A DNA stretch of 64,000 bases from contig CM069150.1 of NCBI GenBank assembly GCA_035221665.1, forward strand, positions 9,114,001 through 9,178,000, given 5' to 3'. A program made the translations under genes and the position numbers. Every line of letters starts with the position of its first letter. Positions within the stretch are counted from its first letter, which is position 1. This document shows positions 3,711 through 43,789 of the stretch, in pieces. Under the pieces are notes generated by a model, which saw only the letters and a list, made by a program, of their open reading frames with translations, was not told where the DNA came from and made no database searches. The DNA comes from Okamejei kenojei (Eukaryota).

Positions 3711-4575
3711 TGGGAGGTTTCACGGCAGTCGGGTCACGACCCATGACCCATACTGTTGCTACACTACGCCAAGTGGAGTACACGCGATGAACTGCAGGTA
3801 AGCACTTACCATCGTTTCCAGCGTAACGGGCCCGTCAAAACCCGCCGAAATCGTCATTCTTTGTGCTGTAAATAATTATGGAAATTGGGATAAGCGTGAG
3901 AAACATTTAGCCTACTTCAGAATTCCAAAAGTGAGGAGAAATGATGGTAGATAGAGAAGCGAGAGCTGAAGGGACAACAACAGCCAGAGTGCTTGGCGAA
4001 CATTGGCCTTTTGCTCACTGCATTTCATCAACTAAGGCATTATTTGTGTTTTTTCCTGATTCCTTTGGCATCTAAAAAGTTTCAGAAATGATAAATCTGG
4101 CTGTAAAATTTTAAAATAGCCCATGGTTTTTACATACAAAAAGAAAACGCCTCTGAAGCAAAATTTACAGCCAGATTTATCACTTCTGAGACTTTTTAGA
4201 AACCAAAGGAATCAAGAAAAACCACAAATAATGCCTTACTGTTGATGAAATGCAGTGAGCAAACGCTAGAATTCCCAATATTTTTAATTCGCCATGCACT
4301 TTAGTTGTGGTTGTCCGTTCAGCTCTCGCTTCTCTTTACCTTCATTTCGCTTCACTTTTGGAATTCTGAAGTTGGGCACATCTCTCATACTTACCCCGAC
4401 TTCCACAATTTTTTACAGCGCAGATATTCAACATTTTGGTGTTTTTTAACAGGTAGGAAAGTACACGTTTCTTGCATTAATAACATATACCGGAAGTTAC
4501 GGATGTCCTCCAGATGGATTGAGCGGCTCCGTGCGTCAAGCCCTATGACCCAGTGACCTTATGTGCAACCCCCTA
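3711..4575. mobile_element. Non-autonomous foldback DNA transposon with a THAP-domain remnant in each arm
   Basis: Long inverted repeat (~3860-4110 vs ~4160-4420); both arms read CAV-x-N...FRIPKV...CSLHF; imperfect termini tgggaggtttcac / gtgcaaccccct. Confidence 0.75.
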
Positions 4576-5891: not shown

Positions 5892-6189
5892 TTTACTTAG
5901 GAGTGATTCCGTGAAGAAGGCCCGCCAGGACGCCTGCGCAGCATTACGTCAGTCGCATTGGCGCAAGCACCTGTCAGGCAGGACTGAGCTCCTGCCTGTG
6001 GTAAGTTAAACTTAAAGGTAAGTTTATTTTTACTTACCAGGGGTTTTAGGCAGGAGCCTCTTTTTACAGAGGTTTTCTGCCAGTTTTGCAGCCCGACAAC
6101 TTGCCGGTTATGGACTGTGGTGAAATTTCAGACCGACCGCAAATGCGGAAAAACCAGCAAAATTGATCGGGTTGCGAGTTAGTTAGTTA

Positions 6190-6422
6190 GTGCAGTTAGC
6201 GGCTCCCCAGCTGCAGTAATGCCATAAAAACGGCAAGAAATTTAATCAGAGTCGCTGACAGAGGGGTCAGTGGCTCCGCAACCTGCAGGGATGCCGTGGG
6301 AACGGCAAGGAATATTAAACTGAGTCGCTGACAGAGCGGTCAGCAGCTCCAAGCCTGTGGTATGCCGTTGGAACGGCAAAGAAGCAACGCTGCAGCCGCT
6401 GACAGTGGGGTCAGTGGCTCAC
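6190..6422 (+). repeat. ~72-bp tandem repeat, about 3 copies, inside the DIRS element
   Basis: gagtcgctgac/cagccgctgac recurs at 6249, 6322 and 6393 with tgcc...acggca between. Confidence 0.85.
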
Positions 6423-6683
6423 AGACGTTGGTCCCCAGTCAAAAAATTACTGGGACTCATTCAGCCCTCGGGTGAGTTGGGATATAAGGGTTCTCCTTAC
6501 AATTAAAAGTATGTATTTTATAGTGTTTTTTCTTTAAGTAAAAAAACTTAAGGCAAAGAAAAAGTTATTGTTATATGATATTGTTCTGACAATGTTATTA
6601 TTGTTTAGCACGTAGCGTGTGCCTATGCACAGGTAAAGCTGTACACTAAATGTTGATTTAGTGAGCTTACACAGCAATAGCGC

Positions 6684-7090
6684 GGCCTATGGGACAGGCT
6701 GCGCCAGCAGCGCCTGACAGGGCTGCTTCATGTGCAAAATGTGCGGGCCTATGGGACAGGCCGCGCCAGCAGCACCTGACAGGACTGCTTCATGTGTAAA
6801 ATGTGCGGGCCTATGGGACAGGCCGCGCCAGCAGTGCCGGACAGGGCTGCTTCATATATAAAAGTGCCGGCCTACGGGAGAGGTGTGCCAGCAGCGCCTG
6901 ATTCAGGGCTGCTTCATTTGTGACATTACCGGCCTATGGGAGAGCCGTATCAACAGCGTGTGACAGGGCTGCTTCAAGTGCTGGCTTACGGGAGAGCCGT
7001 GCCAACAGCGCCTGATGCAGGGCTGTTCATGACAAAAGCGCCGGCCTTTATGAACGGCGGCGCCAGCAACGCCTGGCAGAGGGTTGCTTA
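6684..7090 (+). repeat. ~62-bp tandem repeat, about 7 copies, inside the DIRS element
   Basis: Unit ggcctatgggacaggccgcgccagcagcgcctgacagggctgcttcatgtgcaaaatgtgcg starts at 6684, 6746, 6808 and diverges progressively. Confidence 0.92.
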
Positions 7091-9699
7091 AATTCACACA
7101 TATCTGCTCGCCCACGGAGTCGGGAGATGATTCTCCACCGGGGTTAGAGAGCAAGGCCTACGGAGTCGGGGGATGAATTCCTCACCATGGCTGGATAGTG
7201 CATTGAAACAACTATCCTTATACAGCAACTGTTGTATACAGTGCTGCAAAGGTCTCCCTCTCGGAGGCAGAGACCAAGATGGGTCAGTATCCCGCTGACA
7301 CTGAGACTCAGGGTATGGCCGTGGGGCAGACCCAAAGGGATGAAGGGCACGTGTCAGAGGTCGCTTTCCTGACAATTAAGTTGCCATCCCAGTAAAATAT
7401 TCTATTGGGGTAAGGCCAATGGGTTCATATCAGTATTTGTATCCTACGAATCACTCTTAGAAAGGAAGAGCAAAAGGTCAAGATGACTCCGGGCTCTTAA
7501 GATGTCAATAGAACAGACTCAAGTACATATGTGCCGGCAGTGAACAACGCCAACAGGGGGATGTGAGAGTCAGCCGCTGAATCGGTTATTCAGGTAGGTC
7601 TATTCTACAGGGGAAGAAGCCTGGCAGATGAATTAATTCGGCCATCAACGGGCAAAAGTCATCATTCAGAAACACACCCCAGGTGCTCATCGGCAGTAGC
7701 GGTTCACTGGAGCTGGGGGCAGCATGATACAGCTCAGAAATTCCTTGCACCTTCCGATCATGCTCAACTAAATGGGTCTAGCACTTCCAAAATTTGGGTA
7801 GTGCACCGTTCACAAGTTGTAATAATTACATTTGTTTGTTCAACACGCAAGGGGTAAAATATTTGGTTGAGGCACAGCCGTAGCATTCCAAGTAAGTTGG
7901 ATTATGGCCAGGGTTTGGAAATTGGGCAGAAGTTCTCATGCAAACCACCCATGCAAAAGGCAGGATTGGCATGTTATTATGAAGAACGATGAGTATCTGG
8001 CATATGAGCTTCTGTATGTAAAACATTTACTCCTGACTTCCACAGGTTCATAAGGTAAGAGATTCATGTTATACAAATCCCATTACAAAGGTTATCAAAT
8101 ACAATATAACTGTACTATAACAGTGGGCTCTGCAGTATGGGATAGACTGTTGTTGGTCATTGAGATTTACCTGTAATTATTATTATCCTTGTCTCCACCT
8201 TGTGGCAAGAGATTGGGGTTATAGCAATCTGTTACAAAACTGATTAAAGTAATTGGCAATATAGCAGCTGTGTTGCAGCTGAGCTAATCAAGGAACTGAT
8301 ATTGTGTAAGTAGCAATTAGATCGTTGCTAACAACCTTGCGCTATTGTCAGCTGAGGCTACTTCAGCCACAATGATGAAGTAACAGTATTCAGCATTGCT
8401 GAACATGACCGTACTCATTGAACTTGAACTTGAAACCTGCTACAGTAGTGTGGTCGGTTGAATTCAGTTGTTATGAACTGATGTTCGAACTCTAAGATGA
8501 GAAGTTCGAAATACCATCACCTACTCAAAGGTAGTGGAGATTGCATGAGCACCAATTCTTCAGTTGTTGGTATCAACTAAATGTATACACTTAATGCACC
8601 GTTGAGTAAGGTTTTGAGTGAATATACATATTCTTCATGCACAAAGTTAAGTTGCTGCTCTATAATTGTGACATATGTTACTCTCATGGTAATTAGGAAG
8701 AATATCCTGTAATTGATCTCCTTGCCACTGGTGTATCGTCCAGTTTAGATTGATGATAACACAGAATAAATGTTGGATCTCAGAGCATGATTCAATACTT
8801 TATCAAATGTTTGTCATGTTTATGCATGTTCACTGTTTGCAAAAATATGTGACACAACAGTGTGGAGAAATATATTCTTGTTTCAATAGAAGGAATGGAC
8901 TTTATGTCTTCCTCATTAGCTGGGTCTTAAAACAGTCAGCAAGACCTCGTTTGGATTCGTACTATCGGACTGGCCAAGCGTCCATGTTACCTGCTTCATC
9001 AGGCATTATGGCACAATGGTATTCAGTTATGCCAAAAAGCAAGAACTTGCTGTTTTAAACTGTGGTTCAGGAGACTGGTCTTTGCACAGTAAAATGATTA
9101 TTGACTTACACATTTTCAATGGATTAATTTATGCCTCATGTTGTCACATTTAGCCATGAGGGTGTTCACTGCAGTATGCATGGATAGCATCCAAAAAAAC
9201 AGTACATCCCTATTGAGGGGATCAGAAATGTTGTTAAATATTATGATACATTTGATACGATACAAATTACTGACATTTCCAGTTAATTTTAAGTGATATT
9301 GACAATAGTTCAATTATAGAGAAATTACAGCTGTAACATAAGGGAACTACATTGTTGGGTCCAACCCGGATATCAAGCTGTTAAAAAGATCTTGATACAA
9401 GTATTCGCATCACAAGATTATGCAGTTGGTTATTGTAAATGTGTAAACATTATTTCACCAAGGGGTTCCAGCTACATCCTTAGTCATGACTCTAATATCA
9501 GCACAACGACGGCAAAACATTGCGAATGCTGTGGCTGGGCAGGATGGAATTGGCTGTTCATGCCATTACATATTCATTCTGGTCTACACTAGCAGAGCTG
9601 ACCAGGGCTGGCATGGTTTTAAGATCATTTGAATACCCCACTGTCTCAATTTTATGTTATCAAGGCCACCAGAATCCTTAGAAGTATGGATTCAGCACT

Positions 9700-9990
9700 G
9701 TGTATTCGTTAATAAACAATTACACAAGAAAAGGTCAGTTCAGACTATTTCAAGGTGGCTGCAATAGGTATTAACATTGACAATTGTATGTCTCATTCCA
9801 CCAGGTCAGCATCAACGTCAGTTTATCATTTAGAGAGTGTGTTTACATCTCATTATACTAGGGCAGCATCTATGTTGGTGGTCAAATGGAGGTATGTGTC
9901 CTTCGACCAAATTTTAGTGGCCGTCGGATGGGCAAATGAGCTGATGTTTCAGAAATGTATCATCGGCCAATTGTCAATCCAGGGCTGTTT
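9700..9990 (+). pseudogene. DIRS tyrosine recombinase C-terminal remnant
   Basis: QTISRWLQ*VL, SHSTRSASTS, SHYTRAAS, DQILVAVGWANELMFQK match the HSTR...GW...F-x-x-x-Y pattern; stops and frameshifts present. Confidence 0.75.
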
Positions 9991-10504
9991 GCCAATGTCA
10001 TTTTAAGTACCTAAATTTTAGGGGTACTGTTGTTTGTTTACATTGTTAAATAAACCCTATCGTTACATTGAATATAATGTTATTACTAATGCATTTATTT
10101 CTCTTTCGAGTCAATCAAATGCAGTGGGATGCCGAGATTGTAATCTGCGGCATGAAATCACAAAGCTTTGAACTCTTCACGGAATCACTCACGTGACTCC
10201 GAAGTAAAATAGTAAGATTAAACGAGAAATTACCAGTTTGAAGTTTGATCTTGATTTTATGAGGAGTTACGTTGGTGATTACGTGCCCACCACGCCCAAC
10301 CCTCTCTCATAAAAGATCATCTGGTAGTTCTCGAGTCACTGATCTTACTGTTTACTTCGGTGTTGTTTATTTGTGATTTCATACCGCTGCTTTGAAGTTT
10401 GCTGCGCAGGCGTCCTGGCGGGCCTTCTTCACGTAATCACCAACGTAACTCCTCATAAAATCAATATCAAACTTCAAACTGGTCAGTTCTCATTCAATCT
10501 TAGT

Positions 10505-11897
10505 ATGTTATCCCACTTTTTAAGAAAGGATGGAGAGAGAAAACAGGGAATTATAGACCAGTTAGTCTGACATTGGGGAAGATGCTGGAGTCAATTATAA
10601 AAGATGAAATAGCAGCACATTTGCATAGCAGTAACAGGATTGGTCCGAGTCAGCATGGATTTACGAAAGGGAAATCATGCTTGACTAATCTTCTGGAATT
10701 TTTTGAGGATGTAACGAGGAAAATGGACAAGGGAGAGCCAGTGGATGTAGTGTACCTGGTCTTTCAGAAAGCCTTTGATAAGGTCCCACATAGGAGATTA
10801 GTGGGCAAAATTAGAGCACATGGTATTGGGTGTAGGGTACTGACATGGTTAGAAAATTGGTTGGCAGACAGGAAACAAAGAGTAGGGATTAACAAGTCCC
10901 TTTCTGAATGGCAGGCAGTGACTAGTGGGGTACCATAAGGCTCGGTGCTGGGACCGCAGCTACTTACAATATACATTAATGATTTTGATGAAGGGATTAA
11001 AAGTAACATCAGCAAATTTGCAGATAACACAAAGTGGGTGACAGTGTGAACTGTGAGGATTCTGAGGATGCAGGGTGACTTGGACAGGTAGGTTGAGTGT
11101 GCAGATGCATGGCAGAAGCAGTCTATGTGGATAAATGTGAGGTTATCCACTTTGGTGCCAACAACAGGAAGGCAAATTATTTGTCTGAATGGTGTCAAGC
11201 TAGGAAAAGGGGAAGTACGAGATCTGGGTGTCCTTGTCCATCAGTCACTGAAAGTAAGCATGCAGGTACTGCAGGTAGTGAAGAAAGCTAATAGCATGTT
11301 GGCCTTCATAACAAGAGGAGTTAAGTATAGGAGCAAAGAGGTCCTTCTGCAGTTGTACGGGGCCCTGGTGAGGCTGCACCTGGAGTATTGTGTGCAGTTT
11401 TGATCTCCAATTTGAAGGACATTCTTGCTATTGCGGGAGTGCAGTGTAGAATCACAAGATTAATTCCCAGGATGGCGGGACTAAGATATGTTGAAAGAAT
11501 GGAGCAACTGGTCTTGTATACACTGGAGTTTAGAAGGATGAGAGTGGATCTTATTGAAACATATAACATGAAACATAGAGGCAGGAAACATGTTCCCGAT
11601 CTTGGGGGAGTCCAGAACCAGGGACCTCAGTTTAAGAATAAGGGGTAGGCCATTTAGAACGGAGATGAGGAAAAACTTTTTCACCCAGAGTTGTGAACCT
11701 GTGGAATTCTCTGCCTCAGAAGAAAGCAGTGCCGATTCTCTGGATGCTTTCAAGAGAGAGTTAGATAGAGCTCGTAAAGATAGCGGAGTCAAGGGATATG
11801 GGGAGAAGGCAGGAACGGGGTACTGATTGTGGATGGCCAGCCATGATCACAGTGAATGGCAGTGCTGGCTCGAAGGGCCCAATGGCCTACTCCTGCA
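10505..11897 (+). mobile_element. CR1 LINE RT and 3' end, right half after the DIRS insertion
   Basis: QHGFTKGKSCLTNLLEFFEDVT...FQKAFDKVPH...VTSGVP; RLHLEYCVQF; CR1 3' UTR. Confidence 0.95.
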
Positions 11898-18940: not shown

Positions 18941-19063
18941 ATGGGCGAAAGCAGTGGACGGAGTGGCGGGAGCGCCGGCGCTGGCGGCGGCCTGCGGGCC
19001 AAGGGGATAAGCGATGAGTACTTCGGGAGCGCGGCAGACTGGGAAGAACAGGATGGCTCTATG
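18941..19063 (+). CDS. NELFCD: NELFCD exon 1 coding part (alternative in-frame ATG at 18863)
   Basis: MGESSGRSGGSAGAGGGLRAKGISDEYFGSAADWEEQDGSM then donor gtgagt at 19064, phase 0; resembles human MDEDYYGSAAEW; lies in a CpG island. Start codon uncertain. Confidence 0.85.
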
Positions 19064-19136: not shown

Positions 19137-19612
19137 CGGAGCGGGGAGACTGGGGGCGGGGCCGGAGAGCGCGGGGCGGGGCCGAGATGGGGGCGGGACC
19201 GGGGTGGGGGCGGGACCGGAGAGCGTGGGGGCGGGGCCAGGGAGCGCGGGGCGGGGCCGAGATGGGGGCGGGACAGGGTGTGGGGGGCGGGACAGGGTGT
19301 GGGGGCGGGACCGGAGAGCATGGGGGCGGGGCTGAGATGGGGCGGGGCCAGGGAGCGTGGGGCGTGGCCGAGGTGGGAGCGTGGCGGGGCGAGACCGCAG
19401 AGCGTGGGGGCGGGACCGGGTGTGGGGGCGGGACCGGAGAGCGTGGAGGCGGGGCCGAGATGGGACCGTGGCGGGAGCGGGGCCAGGGAGCATGGGGCGG
19501 GGCCGGGTAAGGGGGCGGAGCCAGGGGCAGGGTCTAGGTGGGGGCGGGGCTAAGCAGCGGCGGGGCGTGATGCGGTGGGGGCGGGGTCTAGACAGGGGAT
19601 GGGGCGGGTCCA
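19137..19612 (+). repeat. G-rich degenerate minisatellite (GGGGCGGG units) at the start of intron 1
   Basis: Repeated ~18-20 nt units such as gtgggggcgggaccgg and gggggcggggccgaga with strong G skew. Confidence 0.9.
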
Positions 19613-30587: not shown

Positions 30588-30697
30588 GGGTGGAACCATC
30601 ACATGTACAGGAAACTGTGGAAAACCATTTGAAGAGTTTGCTCATTAAGCACTTTGATCCTCGGAAAGCCGATTCCATTTTCACAGAGGAGGGGGAG
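30588..30697 (+). CDS. NELFCD: NELFCD exon 4
   Basis: cag|[36 protein letters not shown]|gtaatt; 110 nt. Confidence 0.97.
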
Positions 30698-30723
30698 GTA
30701 ATTTTCTGAATGCTTTTCAAAAG

Positions 30724-30872
30724 TAGGACACAGACAAAAGACATACTGGAAAACCCATGCAAGTCATGGGGAGCATGTACAAACTCTGTACAGACCACAC
30801 CAATAGTCAGGATCGAACCCGGGCCTCTGGTGCTGTAAGGCAGCAACTGTACTGCTGCGTCACCATTACACC
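30724..30872 (-). mobile_element. HE1-type SINE head
   Basis: Reverse complement of ggtgacgcagcagtacagttgctgccttacagcaccagaggcccgggttcgatcctgac. Confidence 0.8.
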
Positions 30873-31449
30873 CCCTTGATTTAGAAACAAATGACAGTTA
30901 TAATCATCATAACTGATGTCACAATTTTCTTGCAATGGATTAGTCAGTAAATTAATGAATGAATGAATAAGTTTATTGGCCAAGTATTCACATACAAGGA
31001 ATTTGCCTTGGTGCTCTGCCCGCAAGTGACAACATGACATACAGTGACAGTTAGGAATGACACATAAAACATTAAACATTAATAATAAAACATTATTAAT
31101 TAAACATGTGAATTAAATAAAATACCAGAGCAAAAGGAGGCTACTGATTTTTGGTTAATGAGTAGAGCAACTACTCGTGGAAAAAAGCTGGTTTTATGTC
31201 TGGCTGTGGCAGCTTTGACAGTCCGGAGTCGCCTTCCAGAGGGAAGTGCAATGCCTCTGCATCAGGCATGTTTTTCAGGTTTTCAAGCTAATCAATGTGC
31301 CAAGCATGAAGGTTCTATCTGAACAAGCTCTCCTTCATGGTCCAAGTTCATCCGATGTTCATGAACTTAAATATCCTATTTCAAGCAACTGGAAAATACT
31401 TCATTATCCTAATTACACATTCTATTAATTAACCAACCATAAAGAAACA

Positions 31450-31900
31450 AGGGCGCAGCGGTAGAGCTGCTGCTTCATAGTGGCAGACACCTGGGTTTGA
31501 TTGTGATCTCAGGTTCTGTCTGTGTGGAGTCTGCACCGTTTCCCTGTAACTACTTTGTTTCCTCCAGGTGCTCCGATATCCTCCGACATCCTAAAGATGT
31601 GCGGGTTTGTAGGCTAATTGTTTTCCGTAAATTGCTCCAGGTGTGCAGGGAGTGGTTACGAAAGTGGGTTAATATAGTGTTCAGGAAGGAACTGCAGATG
31701 CTGGAAAATCAAAGGTAGACAAAAATGCTGGAGAAACAGTGCCTATTTCCTTCGCTCCATAGATGCTGCCGTACCACAGTTTCTCCAGCAATTTTGTCTA
31801 CCATGGGTTAATATAGAACTAGAATGAATGGATAATCAATGGTTAGCATGGATTCGGTGGGCCAAAGGGCCTGCTTCATGCTGTATATTTAAACTAACCT
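31450..31900 (+). mobile_element. HE1-type SINE with a nested Penelope-terminus fragment (~31677-31803)
   Basis: ggcgcagcggtagagctgctgc head and gggccaaagggcctg tail; the tgggttaatatag motif is repeated either side of the insert. Confidence 0.75.
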
Positions 31901-34089
31901 AAAAACCCAGTTTGTAGTTGTGTCTCTTCCTTATTTTTGGCTTGATACGAGTGTTGTTGGCTATCCTGTTGAGACATCTGTTGCAGATGGGAAGTTCAGC
32001 CCATTTTAAAAGCACCAATTTAAGTGATATGATGGCTTTACACATCTGAAGATGTCAACACCAGACTTGCCCTTTCTCTTATCTCAGTTAACATGAGGAA
32101 TTTACTTATTTCTTGGAAGAGTGTGGCCAGGCCTTATTAATTCACGAAGAAACTAAACTGTTGCCTTTAGAGCATTGGTTAAATATTATTGAATCTTTTA
32201 AAGTTTGCTATTTCTGATTACTTCTTTTTTTGTACAACTTCCTCTCTGACCAAACTATCTCGACAAATACTACATTTTGTGGTATATTTTATTCAATATA
32301 TGGGTACTTCAACCTTTCAGCATATGCTTCTACCAAATAATGCATAATCCTACAGTCAACATATTATTGCCACTTCTCTGCACAGCTTGTTGCCACAAGG
32401 AGACTCATTGCTTTGATCCTCCTCAATTGCCTCCTCTTAGTGACCTAATTCTTTCTCTGTGACTCGGAGTGCAAAAATATAGAGATGGACATGATTTTTA
32501 TCAAATGTTTACTCCAAAAAAAACTGCGGCAAGCCAGATCAACAACTGGACTTGGCCTTTCTCAAACTCACAATAACCTTCAGTTCTCTTGATGGGGAAA
32601 CAGTGTGGCAAATTCTTCTTCACTAACCTCAGAAATGTATCTCTATTTTATATCCACTATATGATGACAGGCCATTTCGGCCAGGATTGACTTAATCCAA
32701 ATGCAGATGGGGTTGAAGCAAAGCTGTATCATTACTGCAGCATTCTCAAACCTTCTTGCCACATTATTCCACGCCATCTTCAGCAAACAGCCTGCTGGAA
32801 TGGATCTAATCTACAGGACAACTAGAGAAGTGTTCAACCTTTAACCACTCTACTTGTAAACCAAGGACATGCCAACTGCAGCCATTAAGCCACAGTATGC
32901 AGATACTCGGAGGCTGAGCTCTAAGACATCATTAACTTATTTCACTGGAATATGAGAGAATAGGATCTGCACTAACCATTCATAATATGAAGATCTTCTA
33001 CCAACCTTTCCCTGCTGCACTACTTTGTTCCCTGTTTTTGAAGGTCAGTGATGAAACCAGATATCTGCAGATCATGTTCCATATCACAGGAACCATCAGA
33101 ATGAAAAAGGAAGTCAATGATAAAATTTGCCACTACTTCCAGTTTGACAGCTGTGGCCATCTGCGGCCTATTGAGGGGCAGGCTTGTACCTTTCCCTCGA
33201 AAATTATCCTGATTCAATCTAATACTCCCCTCTTACTCCATTTATCCAGCCACATTTTCATAACGAAACATAAAGTAAATGCCCTCAAATGCCCACTGGA
33301 TTAGGGAACTACATACTCTCTATTGTATACAAAGAGTGTGTGGGATTTTATGTTAATGGTATATACAGAAAATGAGAGGGCAGGTTCTTTTGTTAATAAA
33401 AATGTATCACAATCATAAGCTGGAAAGAGTGCAGAGAAGATTTACGAGGATGTTGCTAGGATTATGAGCTATCGAGAGAGGTTGGGTAGGCTAGGACCTT
33501 ACTCATTGGAGGAGCGCAGGAGGATAAGGGGTGATCTTATTGAAGTGTATAAGATCCTAATGGGAATAGACAGGGTAAATGCATAGACATAAAATGCTAG
33601 CGTAACTCAGTGGGACAGGCAGCATTTCTGGAGAGAAGGAATAGGTGACATTTCAGATCGAGACCGTTCTTCAGACATATTGGTCTTTTACCCGATATAA
33701 TAATAGAATATACAACTAGGGGACATAGGTTTAAGGTGAAGTGGGAAAGATTTATTAGATACCTGAAAGGCAACTTTTTCACACAGAGGGTGTGGGTATG
33801 TGGAATTGGCTTCCAGAGGAAGTAGTTGAGGCAGGTACTATTTCAACATTTAAACGGCATTTGGACAGGTACAGTGGCTTGCAAAAGTTGTCATACCCCT
33901 TGAACTTTTCCACATTTTGTCACGTTACAACCACAAACGTAAATGTATTTTATTGGGATTTCATGTGATAGACCAACACAAAGTGGTGCATAATTGTGAA
34001 GTGGAAGGAAAATGATACATGGTTTCCATATTTTATTACAAATAAAAAACTGAAAAGTGTGGCGTGCAAAAGTATTCAGCCCCCCGAGT

Positions 34090-35046
34090 CAATACTTTGT
34101 AGAACCACCTTTCGCTGCAATTACAGCTGCAAGTCTTTTGGGGTATATCTCTACCAGCTTTGCACATCTAGAGACTGAAATTTTTGCCCATTCTTCTTTG
34201 CAAATAGCTCAAGCTCAGTCAGATTGGATGAAGAGCATCTGTGAACATCAATTTTCAAGTCTTGCCAGAGATTCTCAATTGGATTTAGGTCTGGCTGTAT
34301 GTTTAGGGTCATTGTCCTGCTGGAAGGTGAACCTCCACCCCAGTCTCAAGTCTTTTGCAGACTCTTGGAAACAAGTTTTCTTCAAAGATTGCCCTGTATT
34401 TAGCTCCATCCATCTTCCCATCAACTCTGACCAGCTTCCCTGTCCGTGCTGAGGAAAAGCATCCCCACAGCATGATGCTGCCACCACCATGTTTCACAGA
34501 GGGGATGGTGTGTTCAGGGTGATGTGCAGTGTTAGTTTTCCACCACACATAGCTTTTTGCATTTATGCCAAAAACTTCAACTTTGGTCTCATCAGACCAG
34601 AGCACCATCCTCCACATGTTTGCTGTGTCCCCCACATGGCTTGTGGCAAACTGCAAATGGGACTTCTTATGGCTTTGTTTCAACAATGGCTTTCTTCTTG
34701 CCACTCTTCCATAAAGGCCCGATTTGTGGAGTGCACGACTAATAGTTGTCCTGTGGACAGATTCTCCCACCTGAGCTGTGGATCTCTGCAGCTCCTCCAG
34801 AGTTACCATGGGCCTCTTGGCTGCTTCTCTGATCAATGCGCTCCTTGCCCGGCCTGTCAGTTTAGGTGGATGGCCATGTCTTGGTAGGTTTGCAGTTGTG
34901 CCATACTCTTTCCATTTTCGGATGATGGATTGAACAGTGCTCCGTGAGATGTTCAAAGCTTGGGATATTTTTTTATAACCTAACCCTGCTTTAAACTTCT
35001 CCACAACTTTATCCCTGACCTGTCTGGTGTGTTCCTTGGGCTTCAT
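34090..35046 (-). pseudogene. Tc1 DD34E transposase, frameshifted and internally deleted
   Basis: MKPKEHTRQVRDKVV...VLWSDETK...KHGGGSIMLWGCF; FQQDNDPKHTAR and DLNPIENLW fall in shifted frames; C-terminus AVIAAKGGSTKY. Confidence 0.93.
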
Positions 35047-35118
35047 GATGCTATTTGTTCACTAATGTTCTCTAACAAACCTCTGAGGCCTTCACAGAAC
35101 AGCTGTATTTATACTGAG

Positions 35119-35836
35119 GGTACACAAAAGGCTGGAGAAACTCAGCGGGTGCAGCAGCATCTAAGGAGCGAAGGAGATAGGCGACGTTTCGGGTCGAGAC
35201 CCTTCTTCAGACTGGTCAGGGATCAGGGAAATGAGAGATATAGACGGTGATGTGGAGAGATAAAGAACAATGAATGAAAGATATGCAAAAAAGTATCGAT
35301 GATAAAGAGAACAAGCCATTGCAAGCTGTTTGTGGTGTGTAAATGAGAAGCTAGTGCGACTAGGGTGGGGGAGGGAGATAGAGAGAGAGGGAATGCCAGG
35401 GCCCGAGGGCTGAGGGAGAAGTGGGAAGGGGAGGAGACAGCAAGGGTTAACAGAATTGAGAAAATTCAATGTTCAAGCCCAGAGGATGCAGACTCCCCAC
35501 AGCGGAATATGAGGTGCTGTTCCTCCAACTTGCGGTGTTGCTCACTCTGGCCATGGAGGAGGCCCAGGACCGAGAGGTCGGATACGGAATGGGAGGGGGA
35601 GTTGAAGTGCTGAGCCACCGGGAGGTCGGCTTGGTTATTGCGGACCGAGCGGAGGTGTTCGGCAAAACGATCGCCAAGCCTCCGCTTGGTCTCACCGATA
35701 TAGATCATCTGGCATCTGGAGCAGCGGATGCAGTAGATGAGGTTGGAGGAGGTGCAGGTGAACCTCTGTCGGACCTGGAAGGACTGCTTGGGTCCCTGAA
35801 AGGAGTGGAGGGGGGAGGTGAAGGGACAAGTGTAGC
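35119..35836 (+). mobile_element. Penelope-like 3' fragment (coding on the minus strand) nested upstream of the Tc1 transposase start
   Basis: IYIGETKRRLGDRFAEHLRSVR on minus; perfect 12-bp TSD atttatactgag at 35107-35118 and 35837-35848. Confidence 0.9.
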
Positions 35837-36808
35837 ATTTATACTGAGATTAGATTACACACAAGTGGACTCTATTTACTAATTAGGTGACTTCTGAAGG
35901 CCATTGGTTGCACTGGATTTTATTTAGGGGTATCAGAGTAAAGGGGGCTGAATACTTTTGCACGCCACACTTTTCAATTTTTTATTTGTAAAAAAAATTG
36001 AAAAGCATGTATCATTTTCCTTCCACTTCACAATTATGCACCACTTTGTGTTGGTCTATCACATAAAATCCAAATAAAATACATTTACGTTTGTGGTTGT
36101 AATGCGACAAAATGTGGAAAAAGTTCAAGGGGTATGAAAACTTTTGCAAGCCACTGTACATGGATAGGAAAGGTTTAGAGGGATATGGACTAATGCGGGC
36201 AGGTTTGGCAAGTGCAGATGGGGCATCTTGTTCTACCTGGGCTGAAGGGCCTGTTTCTGTGCTCCATGACCACATTTTCTAAGATACCAGAGTAAGAAAA
36301 CATTTATGGCAAAAACGTGCAGGTTCCTATCTTATAGAAGAATAATTAAAAAAACAAAACATTACATGGATAGGACAGGTTTGGAGTTATATGAACCAAG
36401 CGCAGACAGGTGGGACGAGTGTAGCTGGACATGTTGGCCGGTGTGGGCAAGTAGGGCCGAAGGGCCTGTTTCCACACTGTATCACTCTTTGACTCTATGA
36501 CATGGCTGAACACCTGTCTCGCTGAGTTACTCCAGTTTATTATGTCTATTTTCTGTTCATTTTGTGGGCTATGATACCAGAAACTGATAACAAATTATGT
36601 CAGCCATGGTTCAGACCGTAGTACTCTGTAAACATTGTGGGTTTAGTATTTTACTCCATTCACTTGAGTAAGTCACCTTAACGGACGTTGTACTGTCTTG
36701 CTTTCCACTCCCACCCTAAACTGCATTACCCCTGCGGCTGCACAATTTTAAAGCTACACAAATCAAGTCAAGCTCTAGACCTCAATGTCGCAGCCACCCC
36801 ACAAAGTG

Positions 36809-37327
36809 GATGGAACGCTCACCGGTGTCTCCTATTTCTGCAGCTTTGCTGTCACTTACACTCCCTCTCCCCCGTATAGGCACAAGAATATTCAGCTAGT
36901 CCACGCCTTTCACCCCACCAGCGACAGGACCTTGGCTGGTAGAGGACGAAGCAAGCACGACGTATTAAATGTCTCTCGTTATCAGACATTCGAAAACAGT
37001 TGAAATAAATTTTAAATGTTTAATTACTTAAATTATTTTAAATGATTAAAAAATAACTTTACTTAACACATAGTAAAGTTTCAGAAATTAAATAAAACTG
37101 AGGAAAGTAAAGAAAACAAAACAAACAAGAAACCCACCCTTGCCTTAACAATTACAGCCTCTTGCAAGTACTTCAGCAAAAGCAGTTTCCATTCCCACCC
37201 CCACACTTGAGTCGTAGATGGAACGCTCACCGGTGTCTCCTATTTCTGCAGCTTTGCTGTCACTTTCACTCCCTCTCCCCCGTATAGGCACAAGAATATT
37301 CAGCTAGTCCTCGCCTTTCACCCCACC
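36809..37327 (+). repeat. 111-bp direct repeat flanking a 297-bp insert within an old Penelope fragment
   Basis: 36809-36919 vs 37217-37327 differ at 2 positions by eye; the Penelope remnant continues to ~38220. Confidence 0.9.
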
Positions 37328-38808
37328 GGCCTCTCATTCGAACATATTATTCGCCGCCAATTCTGCCATCTTCAATGTGATGCCACCACCAATCACACCT
37401 TTCTGCTGAGACCTCTTTCTCTGCAATTCTTTGGTTTGCTCATACCTCCTCACCCAACTCACCCCCCACACCCCCTTCCCAGGCACCTTTTTCCACAGGA
37501 GAAGTAACACCTGACCCTATACCTCCTCCCTCACTTCCAGCCAGGGACACCAGCAGCCCTTCCTCATGAGTTTCACTTGCATCTCTTTCAACCTTGTCTG
37601 TTACATTTGGTGCTCCCGATGTGGCCTCCTTTATATCTGCAAGACCAAGCAAAGACTAAGCGACCATTTTGCTGAAGATCTGTACTCCGTACACCAAGGT
37701 CTGCTGGAGCTCACGGTTGTCAGCGATTTGATCTCCGCTTCCCATTCCCATATTGACCTTTCCGTCCTTGACCTACTCTACTGACCAAATTAAGCCACAT
37801 GAAAACTGGAAGAACAGCATGTCATATTCAATCCAATGGTATAAACATTGAACTCTCCAATTGAAACCCCCGTTCCCATCCCCTGTTGCACACCTTTAAA
37901 GCCACTACCATCATCAATCTTTTCTTTCCCTCCTCTGTCCACTTATCTCCTATCCCTCCCTACTCCGTCCCCCATTTCCATTTTATTCCATCCCCTTTCC
38001 CTTTCCCATGTACCCTTCTGCCCGTCTCACTCCTTGTGGCTTTACAATTCACTCCTCTTCCTTCCTCATCCGCCACCTTTTTGTCTCCATTTCATCTCTA
38101 GTCTTTGTTACTATCTCCACCCATCTGACAATCATCCTCACCTGTATCCTGTTTCACCCCACCCCTACCCCTCTTTACCAGTTTTACCCCTCCACGTCAT
38201 CAGTCTGCAGAAGGGTCTATTTATTTCCCTCCCAAGGTGCTTCTGGGTTTTCTTGGAAAACAAACCATTTACCTTCCTTTAACTTATTGCTTTAGATCCC
38301 ATTTCAAATAAATGGGGTTGTGCCACATATGCCAGCCAAGGGTGGTGTAAAGTTACTGGATCAGACGCAAACTGACTGGCCACACAGTTCCATATTTCTG
38401 AGCACAAATCTTGGAGTTAGTGCTGCATCCAGCGAGGTTAGATGACCCAACATTTGACCTGTGTTTCCCTGACATCCACATCACACAGTGCAATGTGGAA
38501 TTCAGGAGCACATTGGCCCATGAACTGCAGCTAACCTATGGATCTCTGTATACCATCCAGTAACAATTGTCATGATATGTCCTCGATTATCTATATTACT
38601 AAAAGTCTGTTCTTGACCGCTTTTGGCCCACTGTGCTGCGATTACTGAGAGAACGCCGCCATCTATGGCCGTCATTTTTGGCCACCTCGTTCAGAGCCTC
38701 TGCCTTACTGGACCAGAAGATTTTTCCCATTGATGAAAAATGAGAGAGATATTAAAGTTTTTAAAAAAATCCCCATTCTCTCTGTTCTCTCTGCTGCCCC
38801 TGCTGGCG

Positions 38809-38944
38809 GCAGGGGGAGGGGGGAGGGACTATAAAACCCGGAAGTGTCGTGCCTCACTCAGTCTCTGCCAGACCCAGGAAGCGAGAAGGTCACGGCTCTC
38901 TGAGCTGTGAATAGCACTGAACGGACGTCTACTCCACGGTGAGT
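38809..38944 (+). promoter_or_regulatory. Helitron-borne Pol II core promoter plus splice donor
   Basis: GC/GA boxes, TATAAAA 38830, ETS ccggaagtg 38838, Inr tcAgtct with A at 38860 (30 nt after the TATA T), donor acg|gtgagt at 38939. Confidence 0.55.
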
Positions 38945-38959
38945 CCCCTTGATGTGGTT

Positions 38960-39480
38960 GCTGCCAAATTGTTTACCTTTTTTTTTAAAGTTTGTTTTCA
39001 CAAAATGAATTTTGGTTGTCATGTGGCTGCAGCCAAATTGTTTGCCTCACCTTTTTAAAAAGTTTGTGTGCACAAAATGGGTTTTGGTTGTCAGGTGGCT
39101 GCAGCCCAATTGTTTGCCTCGTCTTTTTAAAGAGTTTGTGTTCACAAAATGGATTTTGGTTCTCAGGTGGCTGCAGCCCAATTGTTTGCCTCGCCTTTTT
39201 AAAAAGTTTGTGTTCACAAAATGGATTTTGGTTGTCAGGTGGCTGCAGCCCAATTGTTTGCCTCGTCTTTTAAAAATGTTTTTGTTCGCAAAATGGATTT
39301 TGGTTGTCAGGTGGCTGCAGCCAAATTGTTTGCCTCGCCTTTTTAAAGAGTTTGTGTTCACAAAATGGATTTTGGTTGTCAGGTGGCTGCAGCAAAATTG
39401 TTTGCCTCGTCTTTTTAAAAAGTTTGTGTTCACAAAATGGATTTTGGTTGTCAGGTGGCTGCAGCCAAATTGTTTGCCTT
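38960..39480 (+). repeat. 72-bp minisatellite, about 7 copies, inside the Helitron
   Basis: Unit tgtttgcctcgtctttttaaaaagtttgtgttcacaaaatggattttggttgtcaggtggctgcagcccaat. Confidence 0.95.
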
Positions 39481-40176
39481 GGCTTGGCTTTTAAAATCAT
39501 TGCAACAGTTGGCTGCCAGCCCATGAATCCATTCGGCCCACAATGTCTATACTAGCCCTTTGGAAACCAATACCTTTGGCCCGCAACACCCATACTAGCG
39601 CAACAGAAAGCCCCCCCCCCCCCCCCCCCCCCCCCCCCACTGGCGAGCTATATTGGAATTAGTGGAGAGGTGGAATATTGTGTTGGTGACCAGTGTGACC
39701 AGCTCTCCCGTGTGATGCTGGGACCCAAAGGGTCCCGCTTAGTCTAGTATAAATATATAAATTAAATCACATACGTTATTGCTGGTTAAAATCTTTTGAC
39801 GAGCAATTACTATTATCATGCATGAAACTTATAATTTAATTTCTGCACAGCAAGTTGCTATAGACATTGAAATAAGGACAAAGGTCATCAGCCTCAGTTG
39901 TTGGTTTGGGCAATACACTAGACTGCAATCCTGTGGCTATACTTCTAAATGACTTACTCCCTTGTCTTAAAAAACTTTCCCAAGTTTCCCAAGTAAACGT
40001 TAATACTTAAATTCCATGATGTCTTTTACTGTGCTTTAAGCACCAAAGCATCCATTGTTTGACCGTGGGTTGATGTGCCACTACATTTCATAGCTATTTG
40101 AGTTGACTGAGACATAATGGTTCTTCTGCAGTTATGAACATGATTCCTTGATTTAATTGTGTGCTTTTTGTTGCAG

Positions 40177-40284
40177 ACACCAGCTTGGCTAGAGCAAATG
40201 ATTGCTCATGTAACTTGGAGAGACCTCTTCTATAAACTGGCAGAAGCTCACCCCGACTGCTTGATGCTCAATTTTACTGTTAAG
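40177..40284 (+). CDS. NELFCD: NELFCD exon 5
   Basis: cag|[36 protein letters not shown]|gtaaaa; 108 nt. Confidence 0.97.
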
Positions 40285-40809
40285 GTAAAACCAACTTGGT
40301 TGCAATGTTTTTCTCTCACTTGTTTTTGAAATATGGGCATCGCGAGCGAGGCCATTATTTGTTATCCTCTCCTAATTGCCCAAAAGAAGGCGGTGAGTAA
40401 TTCTTAACTAAAAAATGAAGGAGGCTACAGAAAGTGCGGAATATTGCCTGGTCCATCACAGGTACAGCCCTCCCCACAATCGAAGGGATCTACAGGAACC
40501 ACTGCCTCAAGAAGGTTGCTGATATCATCAAAGACTCACACCTCCTTATCCACGGTCCCACCTTGCCGCTACCAATCGGGGAGAAGGTACAGGAGCCTGA
40601 GAACCATTACTTCCTAGTCCAAGAATAGCTTTGCACTACTAAAGTTGTGCTATGTATTTGGCTTGCATTATCAAGGTCTGATTTACCCAGAATATCTGTT
40701 CATTTATTTTATTTACTTGTTGTTTGTAATGTTTAATGTTCCTATAAAGCTGCAGCAAGTAAAACTTTCACCCAATGACAAACATTCTTGAACTCCAATT
40801 TGTCTTCTC

Positions 40810-42979: not shown

Positions 42980-43132
42980 CTAATTTCAGATGCTGGATAC
43001 CAGGGTGAAATAACCAGCGTGTCAACGGCCTGTCAGCAGCTAGAGGTCTTCTCCCGCGTTCTCCGCACCTCTCTTGCCACACTTGTTGATGGGGGTGAAG
43101 AACATTTGGAGAAAAACCTGCCGGAATTTGCA
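42980..43132 (+). CDS. NELFCD: NELFCD exon 6
   Basis: cag|LISDAGYQGEITSVSTACQQLEVFSRVLRTSLATLVDGGEEHLEKNLPEFA|gtgagt; 153 nt. Confidence 0.97.
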
Positions 43133-43473: not shown

Positions 43474-43789
43474 NNNNNNNNNNNNNNNNNNNNNNNNNNN
43501 NNNNNNNNNNNNNNNNNNNNNNNNNNNNNNNNNNNNNNNNNNNNNNNNNNNNNNNNNNNNNNNNNNNNNNNNNNNNNNNNNNNNNNNNNNNNNNNNNNNN
43601 NNNNNNNNNNNNNNNNNNNNNNNNNNNNNNNNNNNNNNNNNNNNNNNNNNNNNNNNNNNNNNNNNNNNNNNNNNNNNNNNNNNNNNNNNNNNNNNNNNNN
43701 NNNNNNNNNNNNNNNNNNNNNNNNNNNNNNNNNNNNNNNNNNNNNNNNNNNNNNNNNNNNNNNNNNNNNNNNNNNNNNNNNNNNNNNNN
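43474..43789. other. Assembly gap (316 N)
   Basis: Run of n in NELFCD intron 6. Confidence 1.

Follow-up and report, generated by a model that had tools for sequence, protein, structure and literature searches.

HelibatN3 of bats is the closest described system. It carries the NUBPL promoter, six NUBPL codons and a splice donor, it traps exons in HeLa cells, and it is predicted to truncate genes, giving products shortened at the N-terminus, when it is intronic and in the sense orientation, as given in the available text of PMC4778049. The family has about a thousand copies (PMC4224331, in its available part), counted in a Myotis species different from that of the transcript data. Only three bat transcripts are shown to start inside the NUBPL cassette in the available text of PMC4778049.

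In this study, we describe an element in intron 4 of the NELFCD gene that resembles HelibatN3. Both are non-autonomous, run from TC to a hairpin and CTAG, lie in an AT target and are present at high copy number. Both also hold a promoter, a short exon and a donor, which in the NELFCD element are read from sequence alone. However, HelibatN3 carries six NUBPL codons whereas the predicted first exon of the NELFCD element is ATG-free, and the latter is further distinguished by an internal 72-bp array and a cartilaginous-fish host. With Helraiser/Helibat1 and Heli1Xen1 the element shares the 5'-TC, the TA-rich left end and insertion between A and T (available parts of PMC4778049 and PMC12001565). 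As in Helraiser, a palindrome stands 11 nt before CTAG-3' and the 3' flank is AT-rich, which is the preferred flank of Helraiser (PMC4778049, available part). The hairpin of Xenopus Heli1Xen1 differs from that of the NELFCD element, and the available text of PMC12001565 makes no mention of sharks or skates. Stingray repeats have no bias between introns and intergenic DNA, and rolling-circle elements are not mentioned in the accessible part of that report (bioRxiv 10.1101/2025.06.08.657570). In the published literature, we found nothing on a promoter-dispersing Helitron of sharks or rays, nothing that joins NELFCD with a Helitron and nothing on a truncated NELF-C isoform; the Helitron family may be catalogued in repeat libraries. 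We consider it rather probable that the NELFCD element is a passive copy of an abundant Helitron family, which is removed with intron 4 and gives little or no truncated NELF-C.

The NELFCD locus and its intronic Helitron

The window, that is, the whole stretch of 64,000 nucleotides analysed, contains 12 NELFCD exons between 18941 and about 63860 (+ strand), as found by searching named shark NELF-C proteins against it. Two shark NELF-C proteins share 96-97% identity with the encoded protein, and that of a chimaera shares 96%; for bony-fish, tetrapod and hagfish proteins the value is 83-92%, which marks the host as a cartilaginous fish. The features around intron 4 are as follows.

30588..30697, + strand: NELFCD exon 4, from protein match; its end is a loose end on RNA-type contigs
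30698-40176, + strand: NELFCD intron 4, which contains the Helitron
38590..39747, + strand: non-autonomous Helitron of 1,158 bp in intron 4, between A 38589 and T 39748
38954..39479, + strand: 72-bp x 7.3 tandem array within the Helitron, with a repeated acceptor-like AG (best at 39133, 7.9 bits)
39720..39747, + strand: Helitron 3' terminus, with a hairpin at 39720-39736 that stops 11 nt before the CTAG end
40177..40284, + strand: NELFCD exon 5, the fifth exon, equivalent to human NELF-C 142-177
42980..43132, + strand: NELFCD exon 6, from protein match; the second loose end of the RNA-type contigs lies at its start

Both ends of the element are of the Helitron type. At the left, A 38589 is followed by TC at 38590, as in the canonical 5'-TC after A, and 38589 is also where an RNA-type contig from another copy begins. 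At the right, CTAG at 39744-39747 is followed by T, as in the canonical CTRR-3' before T; other copies contribute six and two contigs whose loose ends lie at 39748, and RNA-type loose ends pile up there. The hairpin has a 7-bp stem (z = -4.15, 0/200 shuffles), and the terminal 39 nt have a folding energy of -8.9 kcal/mol. No target duplication is seen, as is usual for canonical Helitrons. Unlike autonomous Helitrons, the element has no RepHel ORF, because at 1,158 bp it is too short for one. Its longest ATG ORF, of 157 aa at 39021-39494, is derived from the 72-bp array, contains repeats of WLQPNCLPRLFK and has probably arisen as a side effect of the 24-codon unit. By its ends and copy number, the element is a non-autonomous canonical Helitron, and the identification made in the sequence-only reading agrees with the TC start, the hairpin, the CTAG end and the edges in sequencing depth.

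Four public assemblies were aligned to 38300-40400: X5 and X7 from DNA runs, and X18 and X19 of RNA type. The contigs aligned to the region numbered 25,955 in X5 and 75,430 in X7, most of them 90-99% alike. In the DNA runs, depth was 24-30 (X5) and about 8 (X7) in the flanks and 10^3-10^6 inside the element, with edges at the Helitron ends. Summed contig depth over the element ends and the promoter core was about 12,000-16,000 times (X5) and 18,000-25,000 times (X7) that of the flank, a ratio that is to be read as an order of magnitude, 'very many copies', and not as a copy number. Depth in the promoter-core bin is about that of the element ends, and other copies have DNA contigs that reach from the core to the donor. 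Thus, the promoter/donor cassette is a family trait. Among the rows listed, the NELFCD copy differs from most other copies at 7-9 of 364 positions in the 5' part, and no family difference falls within TATA, ETS, Inr or donor, which counts against a passive copy.

The insertion is likely common to two organisms about 3% apart in the flanks, and older than their split. In X5 and organism B alike, single-copy contigs from the left flank cross into the element at one and the same place and reach 38616 (27 nt); in organism B, a right-flank contig also extends into it, from 39719 (29 nt). Since these contigs have fewer than the 31 letters of the bridging criterion, the shared insertion is likely and not proven. 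The flanks of organism B differ at 11/317 and 18/564 positions, and those of another organism A sample at 1/317 and 4/502. Both DNA runs appear to carry the insertion; no joint that skips the element was found among the 15 joints listed.

Other features of the window were also recorded. Intron 4 holds a 117-nt local duplication (36806-36922 and 37214-37330, 97% identity), and intron 6 an assembly gap of 316 N (43474-43789). A long imperfect palindrome at 3831-4453 (75% over 646 nt) is possibly a MITE-like element. Another repeat, at 5903-10510, has inverted matches (5903-5943/10400-10440 and 10205-10285/10430-10510) and 62- and 71-bp arrays, with no ORF of at least 150 aa; we take its layout to resemble that of DIRS-type elements. 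Rfam gave only two matches, both far under the gathering score. Directly 3' of NELFCD exon 1 lies a G/C-rich minisatellite (19151-19532) packed with GGGGCGGGG boxes. Within the gene, 19007-19009 reads ATA (Ile), where nine of nine named chondrichthyan entries, from seven species, have Met before a SEEYFG-like sequence; therefore the upstream ATG at 18941 is the sole remaining start for that N-terminus. If this ATA is real, the species may be without the shorter NELFCD start, presumably that of NELF-D.

The promoter-like cassette

The left part of the element contains the following features.

38655..38664, + strand: YY1-like GCCGCCATCT, exact match, with a CCAT core nearly private to the NELFCD copy
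38812..38827, + strand: G-rich run upstream of TATA
38828-38840, + strand: M4 motif ACTAYRNNNCCCR, perfect match, overlapping TATA
38830-38836, + strand: TATAAAA, exact match inside M4
38838-38846, + strand: ETS-type CCGGAAGTG, exact match abutting the TATA/M4 core
38858..38864, + strand: Inr-like TCAGTCT, with the predicted start at A 38860, 30 nt downstream of the first T of TATA
38860..38938, + strand: predicted first exon of 79 nt, ATG-free, a candidate exon
38936..38944, + strand: donor-like ACG/GTGAGT, with GT at 38939

The sequence-only reading had proposed this series of motifs. The YY1-like, TATA, ETS, Inr and donor motifs are all exact matches at their positions, the 79-nt segment is free of ATG, and the cassette has the geometry of promoter, first exon and donor in the sense orientation of NELFCD. 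The labels YY1, ETS and Inr are names that we assume for these motifs. The YY1-like site stands at 38655 as proposed but is not a family feature: 38662 reads C in 98-99% of the depth from other copies (185,212/188,879 in X5 and 72,109/72,634 in X7).

The TATA bases have a second reading, as part of M4. In the available text of PMC5006282, M4 is the THAP11/HCF-1 motif of vertebrate core promoters and often overlaps the ZNF143 site. A perfect ACTAYRNNNCCCR in the cassette would fit a captured host promoter. However, M4 here overlaps TATA, at about -30, whereas its reported peak is near -89 (PMC5006282, available part). Exact motif scans gave 0 matches in metagenome contigs and 0 in viral contigs.

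A cluster of such motifs could also arise by chance in G/C-rich repeat DNA, in which case the cassette would never have been a promoter in any copy. Single motifs are indeed common. TATA with Inr has 4 matches in the window against 2.23 expected, a number reached in 22/100 shuffles; the M4 match count is reached in 50/100 shuffles, that is, at chance level alone; and there are five G/GTRAGT sites in sense introns. The YY1 core is, moreover, a nearly private substitution. It is the joint arrangement that speaks against chance. When the 5' 365 nt of the element are dinucleotide-shuffled, TATA, Inr and a downstream donor come together in 1/20,000 shuffles, and with ETS added in 0/20,000; these figures overstate the rarity because the features were picked post hoc, after inspection. 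Among real tiles the TATA-Inr-donor arrangement occurs in 1/347, namely the cassette itself. Bat Helitrons with 5' gene parts also tend toward high copy number (PMC4224331, available part), a point against chance as well. We judge a chance cluster improbable. Since the joint TATA-Inr-donor arrangement is rarer than in shuffles, the cassette probably descends from a genuine unit of promoter and first exon.

Predicted splicing from the cassette and the RNA-type contigs

Splice sites were scored with matrices made from NELFCD's own sites (11 donors, the exon 12 donor being left out as uncertain), which are crude, being built from 10-11 sites. The Helitron donor scores 9.7 bits and the true NELFCD donors 4.6-9.4 bits (leave-one-out). 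Among 2,321 GT in sense introns, 11 score at least as high as the Helitron donor, including itself, and the other 10 are unused in the coding model. Between the donor and the first bases of exon 5 there are 57 AG sites, among which the exon 5 acceptor scores highest, at 8.8 bits; true NELFCD acceptors score 3.9-12.6 bits. A donor above NELFCD's own donors and a best downstream acceptor at exon 5 both count against a passive copy. They favour instead the possibility that the promoter of this copy fires in some tissue or stage, that the 79-nt exon is joined to exon 5 and that ATG 40198 gives a truncated NELF-C. The intact TATA-Inr spacing and the ATG-free leader followed by a first ATG in frame also favour it, and HelibatN3 does exactly likewise in HeLa cells and bats (PMC4778049, available part), at a low base rate in bats.

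The product of such a transcript can be read from exon 5. ATG 40198 corresponds to human M149 and to residue 161 of NELF-C of this species, so a start there would drop 160 residues here, or 148 human-equivalent residues, the latter number being that of the sequence-only reading. The ATG stands in gagcaaATGa, where -3 is C and +4 is A. The next ATG in exon 5, at 40208, is out of frame and reads ATG-TAA, and the third, at 40264, is in frame in a weak context. All three early ATGs of exon 5 thus have weak contexts, in what we take to be the sense of Kozak; together with the out-of-frame start-stop at the second, this weakens the case for translation of a truncated NELF-C. At a synonymous third position of exon 5, 40278, the window has T and all four runs have C.

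NELF-A 6-188 and NELF-C 183-590 form a stable complex, and the C-terminal NELF-C helices also crosslink to NELF-B (PMC4940160, available part). A NELF-B/C/E crystal, 8JJ6, is named in the available text of PMC11881899. The 147-aa NELF-C piece of 8JJ6 maps to residues 36-182, and a start at 149 removes 113 of its residues. A truncated product could therefore bind NELF-A without most of the NELF-B/E-binding fragment. The structural logic of the truncated isoform is sound, if the isoform existed. The structural basis of the earlier proposal that it could uncouple the two lobes of NELF agrees with these binding regions; because C-terminal NELF-C crosslinks to NELF-B, uncoupling might be partial, and a clean separation is not assured.

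Acceptors nearer than exon 5 compete for the donor. Within the 72-bp array, acceptor-like sites lie at 39133, 39349 (6.7 bits) and 39167 (6.0 bits), and a further one follows the Helitron:

39831..39851, + strand: competing intronic acceptor-like site; the exon would begin at 39851 (8.1 bits, against 8.8 for exon 5)

It is conceivable, though unlikely, that transcripts of this copy are spliced to one of these cryptic acceptors or stay unspliced and end as non-coding or unstable RNA. All four sites score within the range of true acceptors, an ATTAAA hexamer is present at 39761, and cryptic sites are also used by HelibatN3 donors in the available part of the HelibatN3 report (PMC4778049). Against this, the scores come from the same crude matrix, and the 15 joints listed include none from 38938, which gives no support either way. 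Of the four, 39133 and 39851 score closest to the exon 5 acceptor and compete with a splice to exon 5.

The RNA-type assemblies X18 and X19 are from organism A and from one study; no run is recorded as RNA, and their RNA nature is a guess that is backed by a contig of exons 4, 5 and 6. A single contig of about 2.07 kb in each assembly, at depth 95 in one and 92 in the other, holds exon 5 joined to exons 4 and 6. Spliced canonical NELFCD mRNA thus skips the Helitron. Other-copy RNA-type contigs run unspliced through the predicted start and donor (38835-38961 and 38849-38957), with 9-11 differences in about 110-125 nt, as would be expected of passive read-through. A junction of 38938 with 40177 was absent from the 15 joints listed, contigs being apt to drop rare forms, and a loose end at 38938 was absent from the 24 listed, a short alternative first exon being easily pruned from contigs. 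Intronic contigs at depth 3-4 are retained in both RNA-type assemblies.

The bases that mark the NELFCD copy in the predicted exon are likewise missing from the RNA-type depth. At 38887, where the copy has A, X18 has 78.4 G and 9.24 deletion of 87.6, and X19 has 113.4 and 7.43 deletion of 120.8, none with A. At 38914, the G of the copy accounts for 0/86.6 and at most 4.7/416. These absences mean lack of support and not silence, since contigs drop rare variants. For X18, the ratio of RNA to DNA depth per bin passes 38860 without a step; for X19, it rises in a bump over 38868-38938 that X18 lacks. Depth in assemblies cannot rank parts of the element. In X19 this bin has about four times the depth of the following one and is made up of a few deep contigs with the bases of other copies (C at 38924 in 357/375 of the depth). 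Some other family copy may be transcribed there; the bump says nothing for the NELFCD locus. A contig in which the same foreign sequence adjoins the element at 39517 occurs in both RNA-type runs; it probably represents a family copy, either 5'-truncated or interrupted, that lies within an expressed transcript.

Among the best 120 of 256 homologous proteins, none begins at the exon 5 Met and none has a reading of the Helitron exon upstream; 40 of the 120 have other upstream sequence, mostly intron-like read-through. This search is weak, its query having included four intron-derived residues.

The isoform that had been proposed from the sequence is thus not borne out: both RNA-type assemblies have the canonical path of exons 4, 5 and 6, and near-equal acceptors lie closer to the donor than exon 5. 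A minor chimeric isoform seems to us unlikely.

A probably passive copy and the Helitron family

The passive reading may be set out as follows. A RepHel transposase acting in trans would have copied the family through its TC and hairpin-CTAG ends, to judge from the ends of the element. The left end would carry a promoter, followed by a first exon without coding sequence and by a donor, and the source of this cassette may be either the transposase promoter and 5' UTR of the parent Helitron or a captured host promoter. One copy presumably inserted in an AT site in intron 4 of NELFCD, seemingly before the two organisms diverged, and has since come to differ by about 2% from the family. Splicing of exon 4 to exon 5 would take the Helitron out with the intron, and at this locus it would be silent. 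The cassette had been described as aimed at exon 5. This wording goes too far: in a high-copy family many intronic copies face acceptors in the sense orientation by chance, and a sense position upstream of an acceptor is expected for about half of the intronic copies.

Beyond NELFCD, it is plausible, if on balance doubtful, that some copies of the family start chimeric transcripts. A much bolder reading would make the family, with about 10^4 copies, a genome-wide promoter/exon trap, of which the old shared copy in NELFCD has been co-opted for a tissue-restricted, N-truncated NELF-C. The co-opted protein, shorter by 160 residues, would bind NELF-A without most of the NELF-B/E-binding fragment and would loosen pausing. 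We hold this joint reading to be very improbable.

If the NELFCD copy is passive, it matters little by itself, being one of thousands of intronic insertions. Should the isoform exist and be translated, the subunit that links both lobes of NELF would have a natural form with an N-terminal deletion, and a transposon would have supplied a handle on Pol II pausing. The Helitron family itself is of modest value: it probably holds thousands of TATA-Inr-donor cassettes, from which new first exons could arise in sharks and rays, and this can be tested.
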